This document shows, piece by piece, positions 1 to 4,234 of a stretch of DNA of 4,234 bases. Source of the DNA: a virus (Duplodnaviria > Heunggongvirae > Uroviricota > Caudoviricetes). Each line of letters begins with the position of its first letter. Within the stretch, counting starts at the first letter, position 1. The stretch is taken from the IMG/VR virus record IMGVR_UViG_3300028965_000035; one strand, given 5' to 3'. Under the pieces are notes generated by a model. The model saw nothing but the letters and a program-made list of their open reading frames with translations. It did no database searches and was not told where the DNA came from. The position numbers and the translations under genes were made by a program.

Positions 1-284
1 TCAGCCGGGGGCAGGCTGCCGGTCACGGCAGCCACCTTTGCGGCCGCGTCGGACGGGGAGACACCAAACACCTTTTCAACCAGTTTCAGGCCGTCACCGG
101 CACCACACTGATTGCAGTACCAGGTGCCGCGCCCCTCCCTGTCATCAAAACGGAAGCGGTCACTCCCGCCACAGACCGGACAGGGCTGATGACGGTTTTT
201 CAGCACCTGAATCCCCAGCGCCGGGAGAATACGCGGCCAGTGGCCGAGCGCATGGCTGACGGTGGCGGTTACGTTCATTTTCAT
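1..284 (-). CDS. alpha: N-terminal ~94 codons of P4-type alpha primase/helicase; gene continues beyond the window start
   Basis: Minus-strand ATG at 284-282, GAAGGAG Shine-Dalgarno (complement of 294-300) about 10 nt upstream. Open frame to the window edge translates MKMNVTATVSHALGHWPRILPALGIQVLKNRHQPCPVCGGSDRFRFDDREGRGTWYCNQCGAGDG..., i.e. a CxxC...CxxC zinc-ribbon typical of primase N-termini. Position downstream of orf106 matches P4 order. Confidence 0.8.
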   Translation of the reverse strand, partial: MKMNVTATVSHALGHWPRILPALGIQVLKNRHQPCPVCGGSDRFRFDDREGRGTWYCNQCGAGDGLKLVEKVFGVSPSDAAAKVAAVTGSLPPA

Positions 285-298
285 GGTGTTGTTCTCCT

Positions 299-619
299 TC
301 AGTGCAGTACCGGCGCTTTTATGTGACGGGCACAGAGTTCATCCATCACAACCAGCCCGAGAAAGGACAGCGACGGCGCGGCCTTCAGGGGGCCGGATTC
401 CATTAAATCTTCCAGCAGGGCACAGGCTATCTGACGCCCTTTTTCCTCACCGTGCTGGCGCAGATAAAAGCCTTCCAGCTCAGCGGCGATGGCCGCTTCC
501 AGTGACTCAAGGGTGAGATGCGGGTAGCGGTGCTGACGTTCGCACACGGTCAGCCAGGCACAGGCGACAGCGCGACGGTAAAGGGCAGCGCGTAAGACGG
601 GCGGTAAGGGTGTTTTCAT
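299..619 (-). CDS. Hypothetical protein, 106 aa (P4 orf106 equivalent), function unknown
   Basis: Complete ORF in the track. ATG at 619-617 preceded by GGGAGG (complement of 627-632) with 7-nt spacer. TGA stop at 301-299 lies inside the alpha Shine-Dalgarno region. Length and position match P4 orf106. Confidence 0.75.
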
Positions 620-700
620 TTGTTTTCCTCCCTGTGACAGATGACTGCATTCCGTGCCGGTTGCATTAACTGATAAGGCATATCTGCGTCTCCTGAAGAC

Positions 701-726
701 GTGCGTATCCCTGCGCGAATACGCAC
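701..726. other. Intergenic stem-loop between orf151 and orf106 (8-bp stem GTGCGTAT/ATACGCAC, 10-nt loop)
   Basis: Perfect inverted repeat 701-708 / 719-726. On the + strand it is followed by T-rich sequence (727-750), so it looks like an intrinsic terminator for antisense transcription. On the - strand it sits 29 nt after the orf151 stop with no U-run. Confidence 0.4.
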
Positions 727-754
727 ATTTAATTTTTCGGGTGTCGTTTTTTAA

Positions 755-1210
755 TTACAGATAATTGCGGTAACTGTTATCCGGGGTGATTTCCGGGTCA
801 GGCTCCGTGCGGGGAATTTCCCGCCATTCCCGCGCCACCGGTGCCGCCCGGCTGGCCGGAACAGTGTCCTGCGGGTAAATATCCAGATATTTCTCCCGCC
901 ATTTCTGTAATTCCGGGTCTCCGGCCATTTCTTTCAGTACCGCATGCCGGTTTACGGGGCTGCGTTTAAACAGGTCAGGACGGTCACAGGTAAATTCCCG
1001 CAGAAAACGCCCCAGCGGGATGTCTGTGGTGCGCCCGTCAGCGAGGATACGCACAAGGATACTGAATTTACGGCGGTACGGGTTCCAGACAATGTCCGGG
1101 CAGCGGTACGGCATTTCCCACGGAATACCGTCTTCCAGAATGCCGACCACGGCCACATCGGGAAAACCGGCAGAACGGTAAATCTCACCGGGCTGGGGAA
1201 AATCAAACAT
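755..1210 (-). CDS. Hypothetical protein, 151 aa (P4 orf151 equivalent), function unknown
   Basis: Complete ORF in the track. ATG at 1210-1208 overlaps the end of the upstream epsilon frame (ATGTTTGA, 8-nt overlap). TAA stop at 757-755. Length and position match P4 orf151. Confidence 0.75.
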   Translation of the reverse strand: MFDFPQPGEIYRSAGFPDVAVVGILEDGIPWEMPYRCPDIVWNPYRRKFSILVRILADGRTTDIPLGRFLREFTCDRPDLFKRSPVNRHAVLKEMAGDPELQKWREKYLDIYPQDTVPASRAAPVAREWREIPRTEPDPEITPDNSYRNYL

Positions 1211-1490
1211 GCGTCCTGTCTCCCCGGTCTTTCTGCTGGGCGAGAAAATCGCGGCACAGGCCTTTGGCTTTCAGCTCATTCAGCACAAAATCAATATCTT
1301 CATTCAGGTAGCTGAAAATATGCGGAATGTAGAGCTGATGCAGGCCGGAGAGTTCACGGTGAATCAAATCACCCCCAACAAACCGGGATACGGCGCTGGC
1401 GCGGTTGAGCTTATGGTAAGCCTCAATGCTGAGGTGTTCACGGGCGTCATGACGCGCTGAGACGGTCTGAGGGGTTTTTTTATTACGCAC
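1203..1490 (-). CDS. epsilon: Epsilon-like helper-prophage derepression protein, 95 aa if started at the GTG
   Basis: The track shows a 175-aa frame (1203-1730) whose upstream part overlaps kil in another frame. The only start with a ribosome-binding site is GTG at 1490-1488, preceded by GGAGGTG (complement of 1495-1501) with a 4-6 nt spacer. It lies 2 nt past the kil TAA stop (1485-1483). Product ends ...DRGDRTHV. Assignment is by position and size; the start codon is inferred. Confidence 0.55.
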
Positions 1491-1680
1491 GGGACACCTC
1501 CACCACCGGCAGACGGGCAGCAAGGGAGAGCACATAGTCACGGACAAGGGAACGGCGGGCACTGCGTTCATCACCGGCGACGGTGCGAAGCATGCAGATA
1601 CGGGGATGACGGTCTGCGCGACGGACAGCCGCAAACACAAAGACAAATTCAGGGTGTGAAGGGGTAAGGGTTGTAGCCAT
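1483..1680 (-). CDS. kil: Kil, 65 aa; an in-frame internal ATG at 1593-1591 would give a nested 36-aa product (eta-like)
   Basis: ATG at 1680-1678 preceded by AAGGAG (complement of 1689-1694) with 8-nt spacer. This is residue 147 of the 211-aa track ORF 1483-2118, whose upstream part covers the CI RNA/seqA leader and is therefore not coding. Product [65 protein letters not shown]. Confidence 0.6.
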
Positions 1681-1686
1681 AAGGCA

Positions 1687-1699
1687 GTCTCCTTCGAGT
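1687..1699 (-). promoter_or_regulatory. seqC-like target of the CI RNA loop, overlapping the kil ribosome-binding site
   Basis: + strand GTCTCCTTCGAGT (1687-1699) matches 12 of 13 positions of GTCGCCTTCGAGT at 1946-1958. Its transcript ACUCGAAGGAGAC is complementary to the loop AUUCUUCGAG in the 1746-1810 RNA (about 9 bp including one G-U). Confidence 0.55.
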
Positions 1700-1745
1700 A
1701 GCAAATAACTGCTATCGCCGGAGTTCTCACGCTCGATGGCGATAG

Positions 1746-1810
1746 CCCAGACGGGGGTGAGAATACCGGCCTCGAAGAATACCGGCCAGCCCGGAGGCTG
1801 CCCCGCCTGA
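1746..1810 (-). ncRNA. cI: CI-type immunity RNA (antisense regulator carrying seqB in a hairpin loop); ends approximate
   Basis: Minus-strand transcript folds into an outer stem (GGCGGGG 1807-1801 with CCCCGUC 1756-1750) enclosing two hairpins: CAGCC-UCCG-GGCUG, and a CCGG/CCGG stem with 10-nt loop AUUCUUCGAG. The complement of that loop, CTCGAAG (1771-1777), occurs only here in the window. Flanked by the direct repeat GAATACCGGCC (1761-1771, 1777-1787). Confidence 0.5.
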
Positions 1811-1919
1811 GCTACCATTGACTCAGTGGCATAACATGCGATTGCGAACAGGATCATACCTGCACGGCAAACCACACGCCACACCATAATCTGGCGCTCT
1901 GTGGCGTTGATTGCGACAC

Positions 1920-1941
1920 AAAAAAAGACGCATGGCGCGTC
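1920..1941 (-). terminator. Terminator-like hairpin plus U7 in the PLE leader, immediately downstream of seqA
   Basis: Minus-strand RNA GACGC-GCCAU-GCGUC (5-bp GC-rich stem, 1941-1927) followed directly by UUUUUUU (1926-1920). The stem is short, so this is more likely a weak or conditional terminator than a constitutive one. Confidence 0.4.
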
Positions 1942-1945
1942 ATAT

Positions 1946-1958
1946 GTCGCCTTCGAGT
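1946..1958 (-). promoter_or_regulatory. seqA-like target of the CI RNA loop in the 5' leader
   Basis: GTCGCCTTCGAGT, direct repeat of the seqC box, about 40-50 nt downstream of the predicted PLE start; complementary to the seqB loop (about 8 bp). Confidence 0.5.
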
Positions 1959-1996
1959 TACACGGGTTCTCACGCCCGGCTGCCGATTTTGCGGCA

Positions 1997-2034
1997 GCGG
2001 AAAAACTATATCCGCAAATGCCGGAAAAAGGCAA
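1997..2034 (-). promoter_or_regulatory. PLE-like constitutive sigma70 promoter of the leftward operon
   Basis: Minus strand -35 TTGCCT (complement of 2029-2034), 18-bp spacer, -10 TATAGT (complement of 2005-2010). Predicted start near 1997, between the vis stop and seqA. Confidence 0.5.
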
Positions 2035-2069
2035 GCCAGAAAAAGGGAGTTTTTGCAGAGCGGGCATCA

Positions 2070-2336
2070 TCATGCGTCGTACCCCCGTTTGCGTCCGGCA
2101 ATGCGCCCGGTCATCCATGCGGTGATTTCAGAGTGCAGCCAGGCCACATTTTTACCGCCAAGACTCACCTGCGGCGGAAATTCCCCCTTACGGATGAGTT
2201 CATAGATGGTCGAGCGTGACAGGCCGCACAGGTGCATCACTTCCGGCAGACGTAAAAAACGCTCCTGCGTGATGTCCGGCAGCGGCATCAGTGGCGTCAC
2301 TGGGGCGGGAGACGGGGAAGAAAAAACAGCTTGCAT
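2070..2336 (-). CDS. vis: Vis, AlpA/excisionase-family helix-turn-helix regulator, 88 aa
   Basis: Complete ORF. ATG at 2336-2334 preceded by GAGGT (complement of 2344-2348) with 7-nt spacer. Product contains [27 protein letters not shown], a typical AlpA/Xis-type HTH. First gene downstream of the PLL-like promoter. Confidence 0.8.
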
Positions 2337-2384
2337 CGGGCTACCTCGTTAATGTCCATACAGCACCGGATAAGTCCGTCCGGC

Positions 2385-2456
2385 TTCGGGTAGCGCTTTA
2401 TTTTGTGAATATTTTCGGCAGACGCAACAGGGGGGATTTGTTCAGGCAGCCTTACA
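2385..2456 (-). promoter_or_regulatory. PLL-like late promoter with Delta/Ogr-type activator dyad TGT-N12-ACA
   Basis: Dyad TGTTCAGGCAGCCTTACA at 2439-2456 (centre 2447.5). Weak AT-rich -10 candidate around 2399-2407 on the minus strand, predicted start near 2390, reading into vis. Confidence 0.5.
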
Positions 2457-2520
2457 ATGGCTGTGTGTTTTTTATCCATCCGGACTGGAAGGGTCTCAAA
2501 GGGTTCTGAAGGACCTGGAA

Positions 2521-2740
2521 TTTTTTATAGTGAAATACAAATTGTTTTTTCTTATTTATTTCAGTGAATTAATAAAAATAAAAAGTAATAAACAGCACAA
2601 AAAGTCCATGAACGGGTGAACAGTGGTGAACAGACGGTGAACAGTCATTACTGCGATTGTTCACCCTTTAACTTACTGTATTACTTATCTTTTTTATTAA
2701 GGTGAACAGAGGTGAACAGTAAAACATAAAAAAAAACAGT
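2521..2740. other. Replication origin region: AT-rich tract with six copies of the octamer TGTTCACC (alpha-binding iteron type)
   Basis: Complement-strand copies GGTGAACA at 2615-2622, 2625-2632, 2636-2643, 2701-2708, 2711-2718 (each as GGTGAACAG); one opposite-orientation copy TGTTCACC at 2658-2665. Flanked by AT-rich DNA (2521-2600, 2666-2700) and an A9 run at 2728-2736. Confidence 0.7.
2615..2719. repeat. Iteron cluster (GGTGAACAG, five direct copies plus one inverted copy)
   Basis: Exact 8-9 bp repeats at about 10-11 bp (one helical turn) spacing in two blocks, separated by an inverted copy. Confidence 0.8.
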
Positions 2741-2795
2741 AAGCAGGTTTTTCCTGCGACCTTTTCCTGGCTTGCCGGTCTGAGGATGAGTCTCC

Positions 2796-2860
2796 TGTGT
2801 CAGGGCTGGCACATCTGCAATGCGTCGTGTTGTTGTCCGGTGTACGTCACAATTTTCTTA
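2796..2860 (+). promoter_or_regulatory. Psid-like late promoter with Delta/Ogr-type activator dyad TGT-N12-ACA
   Basis: Dyad TGTGTCAGGGCTGGCACA at 2796-2813 (centre 2804.5). Weak -10 candidate CACAAT at 2848-2853, predicted start near 2860, leader of about 25 nt to the sid ATG. Confidence 0.5.
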
Positions 2861-2885
2861 ACCTGAAGTGACGAGGAGCCGGAAA

Positions 2886-3620
2886 ATGTCTGACAACACC
2901 ATCCCTGAATATCTGCAACCCGCGCTGGCACAACTGGAAAAGGCCAGAGCCGCCCATCTTGAGAACGCCCGCCTGATGGATGAGACCGTCACGGCCATTG
3001 AACGGGCAGAGCAGGAAAAAAATGCGCTGGCGCAGGCCGACGGAAACGACGCTGACGACTGGCGCACGGCCTTTCGTGCAGCCGGTGGTGTCCTGAGCGA
3101 CGAGCTGAAACAGCGCCACATTGAGCGCGTGGCACGCCGGGAGCTGGTACAGGAATATGACAATCTGGCCGTGGTGCTGAATTTCGAACGTGAACGCCTG
3201 AAAGGGGCGTGTGACAGCACGGCCACCGCCTACCGGAAGGCACATCATCACCTTCTGAGTCTGTATGCAGAGCATGAGCTGGAACACGCCCTGAATGAAA
3301 CCTGTGAGGCGCTTGTCCGGGCAATGCATCTGAGTATCCTGGTACAGGAAAATCCGCTCGCCAACACCACCGGCCATCAGGGCTACGTCGCACCCGATAA
3401 GGCTGTCATGCAGCAGGTGAAATCATCGCTGGAACAGAAAATTAAACAGATGCAAATCAGCCTCACCGGCGAGCCGGTTCTCCGGCTGGCCGGACTGTCA
3501 GCGGCAACACTCCCGCACATGGATTATGAGGTGGCAGGCACACCGGCACAGCGCAAGGTGTGGCAGGACAAAATAGACCAGCAGGGAGCAGAGCTTAAGG
3601 CCAGAGGACTGCTGTCATGA
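2886..3620 (+). CDS. sid: Sid, external scaffold that redirects helper capsid assembly to the small size, 244 aa
   Basis: ATG at 2886 preceded by GAGGAG (2873-2878) with 7-nt spacer. The track's 2868 start is an in-frame GTG without a ribosome-binding site. TGA stop at 3618-3620 overlaps the delta ATG. Assigned by size and position directly before delta. Confidence 0.85.
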   Translation: MSDNTIPEYLQPALAQLEKARAAHLENARLMDETVTAIERAEQEKNALAQADGNDADDWRTAFRAAGGVLSDELKQRHIERVARRELVQEYDNLAVVLNFERERLKGACDSTATAYRKAHHHLLSLYAEHELEHALNETCEALVRAMHLSILVQENPLANTTGHQGYVAPDKAVMQQVKSSLEQKIKQMQISLTGEPVLRLAGLSAATLPHMDYEVAGTPAQRKVWQDKIDQQGAELKARGLLS

Positions 3621-4117
3621 TTTACTGCCCGTCGTGTGGACATGTTGCTCACACCCGTCGCGCACATTTCATGGACGATGGCACCAAGATAATGATTGCA
3701 CAGTGCCGGAATATTTATTGCTCTGCGACATTTGAAGCGAGTGAAAGCTTTTTCTCTGACAGTAAAGATTCAGGAATGGAATACATTTCAGGCAAACAGA
3801 GATACCGCGATTCACTGACGTCGGCCTCCGGCAGTATGAAACGCCCGAAAAGAATGCTTGTTACCGGATATTGTTGTCGGAGATGTAAAGGCCTTGCGCT
3901 GTCAAGAACATCGCGGCGTCTGTCTCAGGAAGTCACCGAGCGTTTTTATGTGTGCACGGATCCGGGCTGTGGTCTGGTGTTTAAAACGCTTCAGACCATC
4001 ACCCGCTTCATTGTCCGCCCGGTCACGCCGGACGAACTGGCAGAACGCCTGCATGAAAAACAGGAACTGCCGCCAGTACGGTTAAAAACACAATCATATT
4101 CGCTGCGTCTGGAATGA
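3617..4117 (+). CDS. delta: Delta, late-gene transcriptional activator made of two Ogr-like zinc-finger modules, 166 aa
   Basis: ATG at 3617 overlaps the sid stop (ATGA); GAGGA at 3604-3608. N-terminal module MIYCPSCGH...CRNIYCSATF and second module CCRRCKG...CTDPGCGLVF each have CxxC...Cx4C spacing like Ogr-family activators. Confidence 0.85.
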   Translation: MIYCPSCGHVAHTRRAHFMDDGTKIMIAQCRNIYCSATFEASESFFSDSKDSGMEYISGKQRYRDSLTSASGSMKRPKRMLVTGYCCRRCKGLALSRTSRRLSQEVTERFYVCTDPGCGLVFKTLQTITRFIVRPVTPDELAERLHEKQELPPVRLKTQSYSLRLE

Positions 4118-4178
4118 GGGCTGCCGGTTAACCCCGGCCGTTGCGTATTACCGTGAAGGAGATCGGTGAGTAACATCG

Positions 4179-4234
4179 ATGGAGATCGGTTCGTGTCACT
4201 TTCACAGAACCGTTTTTAAATTACCTTCACTGAT
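4179..4234 (+). CDS. 5' end of the next late-operon ORF (psu position in P4), truncated by the window end; product not assignable from 18 codons
   Basis: Only frame open to the window end after delta. First ATG at 4179 (MEIGSCHFHRTVFKLPSL...). The nearest strong Shine-Dalgarno, AAGGAGA at 4156-4162, is 16 nt upstream, which is too far for a good site. Identity uncertain. Confidence 0.3.
   Translation, partial: MEIGSCHFHRTVFKLPSL

Follow-up and report, generated by a model that had tools for sequence, protein, structure and literature searches.

The window, that is, the whole stretch of 4,234 nucleotides that was analysed (IMG/VR record IMGVR_UViG_3300028965_000035), matched phage P4 (X51522/NC_001609, positions 6686-10838) over bases 1-4141 with 97% identity in megablast, and judged by its sequence it is a P4-type satellite. 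In the P4 records ORF88/vis, the immunity region, epsilon, ORF151, ORF106 and the start of alpha are annotated on the minus strand, and sid and delta on the plus strand, which agreed exactly with the genes seen in the window. P4 is the textbook phage satellite, and roughly one in three enterobacterial genomes carries a P4-like element. The last 96 bases (4139-4234) had no P4 match; at 99% identity they matched the edge of an insertion sequence of the IS21 family (transposase and IstB-like helper) in phage PhiR12_1, and this insertion sequence appears to have entered just after delta, at the psu position of P4.

Two small genes, orf151 and orf106, were located on the minus strand between the helper derepressor epsilon (1203-1490, minus strand; Pfam Derepression PF25738, 7.2e-51, and P4 annotation) and the alpha primase-helicase, whose N-terminus lies in the window (1-284, minus strand; Zn_Ribbon_Prim, 1.2e-19, and P4 annotation). 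Orf151 (755-1210; ATG 1210-1208, TAA 757-755) encoded 151 amino acids and corresponded to P4 ORF151, while orf106 (299-619; ATG 619-617, TGA 301-299) encoded 106 amino acids and corresponded to P4 ORF106, which is very probably cnr (see below). The names ORF106 and ORF151 date from the P4 sequence records of the 1980s. The interval was already known as a feature, and current understanding of it is not overturned here. An earlier note, made from the letters of the window, had placed both reading frames between the derepressor and the primase, and these positions and flanks were borne out exactly.

The good ribosome-binding sites described in that note were present before both genes, GGGAGG (632-627) 7 nt before the ATG of orf106 and GGGGAG (1224-1219) 8 nt before that of orf151. 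The coupled stops it described existed at the two outer junctions. The epsilon stop and the orf151 start overlapped by 8 nt (ATGTTTGA, 1210-1203), and 14 nt separated the orf106 stop from the alpha ATG, this spacer being filled by the Shine-Dalgarno site of alpha (AGGAG, 298-294), directly after the cnr stop codon. Between orf151 and orf106 the description failed, with a gap of 135 nt (620-754) and no coupling between the two. The idea that the stretch from epsilon to alpha has a promoter or terminator of its own was rejected, as no promoter-like site was found there and the single terminator-like match was at chance level; the lack of a promoter-like site fits one long operon. Orf106 and orf151 both belong, as genuine genes, to the left (early/replication) operon of P4, whose transcription runs from right to left here. 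Both had full-length homologues and low dN/dS, so the view that they are real and placed for expression was upheld, and no P-loop, zinc-finger or HTH family was matched by either in Pfam at E<=1, in line with the reading by eye.

The C4/CI immunity RNA (1735-1822, minus strand) was recognised with Rfam, and its a1b1 target repeats were also found. A 137-amino-acid 'cI/ash' protein is still annotated over this RNA region by the P4 records (window 1483-1899, minus strand), and only the C-terminal 66 codons of its frame (1483-1683) were conserved as an ORF in other elements.

orf106 and the copy-number gene cnr

The orf106 protein was 100% identical to P4 ORF106 (UniProt YQ55_BPP4). It matched Pfam DUF5375 (PF17345) above the curated threshold, with an E-value of 2.9e-63 and 210.9 bits against a cut-off of 30, residues 1-106 being aligned on profile positions 1-106. 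Full-length homologues were found down to about 60% identity, and a dN/dS of 0.09 among close P4 copies pointed to strong constraint. Eighty loci were fetched from species-representative genomes using the orf106 profile, and the homologue lay directly before alpha in the same orientation in 80/80 of them, with a gap of about 15-25 nt, a count which describes the adjacency to alpha and not the prevalence of the gene. In more distant islands DUF5375 was also paired with a DUF927-type primase. Structure prediction, which the earlier note had suggested for both proteins, gave a predicted four-helix protein for orf106, with one of five AF2 models confident.

The P4 gene cnr controls the plasmid copy number; it was placed between epsilon and alpha, and its family was present in 90% of elements (PMC8628076). 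In P4 the interval from epsilon to alpha contains only ORF151 and ORF106. Since the orf106 family occurred in 80/80 loci whereas an orf151 homologue was observed in about 15 of the 80, P4 copies included, orf151 cannot be the 90% family, and orf106 is. Cnr is reportedly a negative regulator of P4 replication, and its over-expression is said to block replication. Mutations that give resistance to Cnr reportedly fall in the C-terminal DNA-binding domain of alpha, and Cnr is said to bind alpha and to raise its affinity for the ori/crr repeats. These properties of Cnr are attributed to Terzano et al. 1994 and Ziegelin et al. 1997, and ORF106 is presumably this gene. Triangulated from PMC8628076, the gene-neighbourhood counts and the earlier literature on Cnr, the assignment of orf106 to cnr is held with high confidence.

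The opposite reading, that orf106 is a small protein unrelated to Cnr and directed at the helper or the host, could draw on the fact that every sequence database lists it as uncharacterised or as DUF5375. No match was found in NCBIfam or, at E<=1, in PADLOC, only a family of unknown function was hit in PHROGs, and the name Cnr was attached to ORF106 in no database, YQ55_BPP4 being entered in UniProt as 'Uncharacterized protein ORF106'. The description in PMC8628076 fits only the orf106 family, a homologue is called 'DNA replication protein' in one source, and the coupling to alpha is invariant, which leaves this reading very improbable. Orf106 shares with P4 Cnr/DUF5375 both the full-length sequence and the site directly upstream of alpha, without any difference at the sequence level; the databases merely do not link ORF106/DUF5375 to Cnr. 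Orf106 would thus be a gene that has been characterised but has not been given its name, cnr, in any database, and because the entries read 'Uncharacterized protein ORF106' or DUF5375, it was missed in the earlier note. Homology to a characterised family, which the note itself had named as evidence against its view, was found in substance for orf106, so a role in helper interference or host interaction gives way to that of a replication copy-number regulator acting on alpha. As bookkeeping, Pfam DUF5375 should carry the function of Cnr.

On the published mechanism, Cnr would be a small helical protein whose synthesis just precedes that of the alpha primase-helicase. It would bind alpha, raise its affinity for ori and crr and restrain the initiation of replication, and through this action on alpha the copy number would be set in the plasmid state.

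Among near-identical P4 copies (L088-L247), the dS of cnr was 0.12 against 0.03 for epsilon and orf151, about four times as high, and this synonymous excess suggests that the operon is a recombinational mosaic at its cnr-alpha end. P4 or P4-like DNA was also carried by assemblies labelled Dysgonomonas, Clostridiales, Ferruginibacter, 'bacterium' and Vagococcus (L003-L006, L054), with an ORF106 100% identical to that of P4 in the metagenome-assembled genomes L003-L006, which is probably due to mis-binning or contamination.

Hairpin and gene remnant in the spacer before cnr

A hairpin was identified in the orf151-cnr spacer (699-728, minus strand) from its fold, its cross-genus conservation and its covariation. 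It had a 12-bp stem and a 6-nt loop (AUGUGCGUAUUC-GCGCAG-GGAUACGCACGU) and was conserved from E. coli to Yersinia and Serratia. In the alignment 88.7% of cells were paired and both sides were changed in 5 of the 12 pairs; none of 500 shuffles scored as high, and slid controls were much lower. G-U pairs occurred on the transcript strand, and together with the covariation they point to an RNA element, probably one of the left-operon mRNA. The site was labelled only 'region of dyad symmetry' in the 1984 GenBank record X02534.

A 75-amino-acid gene preceded cnr in about 70 of the 80 loci, and P4 is without it (PMC8628076). Compared with three other loci (L038, L048, L059) in DNA alignment, the P4 spacer had an internal deletion of about 195 nt with both ends kept. 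P4 retained the ribosome-binding site, the first codons and the last codons of the 75-amino-acid gene, giving, downstream of the hairpin, a 21-codon ORF (681-616, minus strand) which by this alignment is an internal-deletion remnant of that gene. Its TGA overlapped the ATG of cnr (ATGA), and it may still be a coupled leader for cnr. The 75-amino-acid protein was rejected as a distant epsilon homologue (hhalign probability 0.3%).

orf151: family, linkage to epsilon and predicted fold

The orf151 protein was 99% identical to P4 ORF151 (UniProt YQ54_BPP4; PHROG 10748, function unknown), from which it differed by one or two substitutions, its position and its overlap with epsilon being alike. It was named 'hypothetical protein' in every source, and a full-text literature search gave no mention of it in the context of P4, and nothing that bears on P4 under orf106 or DUF5375 either; the earlier description as uncharacterised stood for orf151, whereas for orf106 it did not. 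The profile searches proposed in the note, which had led orf106 to DUF5375, gave for orf151 no match in Pfam at E<=1, none in NCBIfam and none in PADLOC at E<=1, and neither protein matched the epsilon family PF25738 in Pfam. Against PDB sequences the orf151 profile gave nothing significant, only eL21 SH3-barrel matches below threshold (E 0.08). The family is small, with 104 clusters at 90% identity. An exhaustive HMMER search over 1.84 billion representatives returned 30 hits, nearly all of them fragments of the same family; the sole outlier (P0242, E 2.5e-5) was rejected as a relative, being a low-complexity repeat protein.

At >=95% identity, orf151 was present in 984 of 5,426 complete E. 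coli genomes (about 18%), always on the chromosome, and among 50,697 phage records it was found in P4 itself only. It was found only in P4-like satellites, and in other species most such elements do not have it. In 63 of the 80 loci the left operon had the backbone vis, CI RNA, 66-amino-acid ORF, 75-amino-acid gene, cnr and alpha, and in a minority epsilon and orf151 formed a joint insert between the 66-amino-acid ORF and the 75-amino-acid gene. Most non-E. coli P4-like elements (L007-L082, L248-L254) were without true epsilon (PF25738) and orf151, and carried only the 66-amino-acid ORF and the 75-amino-acid gene before cnr.

In all loci but one orf151 was immediately downstream of epsilon. 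It was next to epsilon in 153/153 metagenomic and IMG/VR loci, a set defined as epsilon-bearing metagenomic or viral loci with room downstream of epsilon. The 8-nt overlap was kept in seven non-P4 loci, and the adjacency held for the Yersinia, Serratia and Enterobacter homologues at 43-65% identity, with a gap of 57 nt in Yersinia ruckeri and Serratia. The true epsilon of P4 and orf151 are an accessory pair and not a core module, and their adjacency is no proof of a shared function. An obligate pair was rejected, since epsilon existed alone in Salmonella, Erwinia and other islands; after the distant epsilon homologues of Salmonella, Erwinia psidii and an environmental contig, the next gene was DUF5375 or an integrase.

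Several rearranged forms were observed. In a Cedecea locus (L055:3075-3245) epsilon was replaced by an AT-rich stretch with a small hydrophobic ORF, and orf151 was kept at 50% identity. A natural in-frame epsilon::orf151 fusion of 244 amino acids (P0001, 22 member sequences) gives weak extra support for a functional link. In another protein (P0241) the N-terminus of the 75-amino-acid protein was fused to the C-terminus of orf151.

For orf151 the structure prediction gave an AF2 model with a pLDDT of 74, in which beta strands formed a small SH3/Tudor-like barrel (residues about 10-65), followed by helices in a helical hairpin (66-111), a disordered Arg/Pro-rich segment (121-143) and, at the C-terminus, a short helix that spans the conserved motif PDNSYR-YL. 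In structure comparison the model scored 7.0 with CarD, 6.7 with the UvrD C-terminal domain bound to the RNA polymerase lobe, 6.5 with VapX, 6.3 with DUF1653 and 6.1 with the PcrA Tudor domain, and after these it resembled many further Tudor, SH3 and KOW barrels. Foldseek against viral models (BFVD) gave nothing at E<=0.001. The predicted SH3/Tudor-like fold class is probable, and a specific relationship to Tudor domains that bind polymerase is no more than a lead. The Tudor-like domains of CarD/CdnL, Mfd and UvrD/PcrA were the nearest structures to the model, but sequence identity was merely 6-17%, no profile match was found (Pfam CarD_TRCF, E<=1), and the CarD/UvrD-type scores were no better than those of eukaryotic Tudor domains, VapX or DUF1653. 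These proteins also have no counterpart of the helical part and the tail of orf151. The barrel was similar to DUF1653 (PDB 3be3), a family of small barrel proteins found in bacteria and phages, without a Pfam match at E<=1; the resemblance is uninformative because DUF1653 itself has no known function.

Possible role of orf151, and the Ash marker

Constraint on orf151 was evident. For close alleles dN/dS was 0.29, and 0.20 for epsilon. Full-length homologues were found down to 43% identity with 26 invariant columns, including the N-terminal MFDFPQ, two cysteines and the C-terminal tyrosine and leucine, and 143 of the 153 copies (93%) were intact. Orf151 is almost certainly a functional gene. 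If it were instead an ORF without function, or one in decay, that persisted through linkage alone, the disruption of 10/153 copies (about 6.5%), a dN/dS above that of the neighbours and deletion fusions such as P0100, in which orf151(1-42) is joined to cnr, could be accounted for. This is hardly credible against a dN/dS well under 1, the 93% of copies that are intact, and a full frame that the Yersinia and Serratia homologues still share with E. coli at 43-50% identity.

The reading preferred here, with moderate confidence, takes orf106 as cnr and orf151 as a separate accessory adaptor adjoining epsilon. Orf151 would be a separate accessory gene carried immediately downstream of epsilon, and in the E. 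coli clade it would be co-translated with epsilon through the 8-nt overlap. A barrel, helices and a disordered tail with a conserved peptide in the model suggest a protein-binding adaptor, in which the barrel, helical hairpin, disordered linker and conserved C-terminal peptide would act on a protein of the helper or the host, together with epsilon or immediately after it. In its specific form, an epsilon-linked binding adaptor for a helper or host protein during or after derepression, the proposal is tentative. RNA polymerase is the favoured but weak candidate for the target, and quite a doubtful one by itself; it leads because the model comes closest in structure to the Tudor domains with which CarD, UvrD/PcrA and Mfd bind the polymerase. 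As most P4-like elements are without orf151, it should be dispensable for the basic satellite cycle. The role in helper or host interaction suggested in the earlier note is still a reasonable guess, somewhat strengthened by the conserved adjacency to epsilon; its observation was confirmed and its interpretation was half right. For orf151, only the status as an epsilon-linked accessory and the predicted adaptor-like fold are new here.

Two other roles have to be weighed against this one. Orf151 could be a replication accessory working with Cnr and alpha, with the C-terminal peptide docking, for example, onto alpha or onto a protein of the host replisome. Every locus that has the gene places it ahead of cnr-alpha within one operon, and a disordered tail with a conserved terminal motif is typical docking-peptide architecture. 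However, at least 56 P4-like loci keep cnr-alpha and replicate without orf151, and the gene tracks epsilon rather than the alpha type, occurring with both Pox_D5-type and DUF927-type primases. The hairpin, and usually the 75-amino-acid gene as well, stand between orf151 and cnr, so a replication role is considered unlikely. Similarly little credence is given to orf151 as an independent effector of host takeover, anti-defence or exclusion, for which the proximity to epsilon would be the historical linkage of a mobile two-gene cassette. Its small size, accessory and satellite-specific nature, relaxed constraint and occasional loss would suit such an effector, as would the one locus with orf151 without epsilon and the resemblance of the barrel to the antitoxin VapX and phage DUF1653 proteins. 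On the other side, PADLOC gave no match, the gene is outside the variable defence hotspot of P4-like satellites (PMC9122126, PMC8628076), and it is one conserved family at a fixed position instead of a variable slot.

Within the preferred reading, a stronger version would make orf151 an unrecognised satellite effector co-delivered with the anti-repressor epsilon, the barrel docking RNA polymerase or a helper early protein and the C-terminal peptide recruiting a second partner. This version is rather improbable; if it were true, the effector would tune helper gene expression after derepression and would represent a new class of helper-manipulation factor, carried by about 18% of complete E. coli genomes. 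Orf151 is among the last P4 genes without an assigned role, yet it is found in about one fifth of complete E. coli genomes, and knowing its partner would round off the account of how P4 deals with the helper.

A minor observation concerns the annotation of the derepressor in related elements. Satellite surveys use 'Ash (also called epsilon)' as a core marker (PMC10085698), and Pfam Phage_ASH (PF10554) matched the ORF upstream of epsilon. In view of this match and of the absence of true epsilon from most P4-like elements outside E. coli, the 'Ash' of the surveys may not be the functional derepressor.
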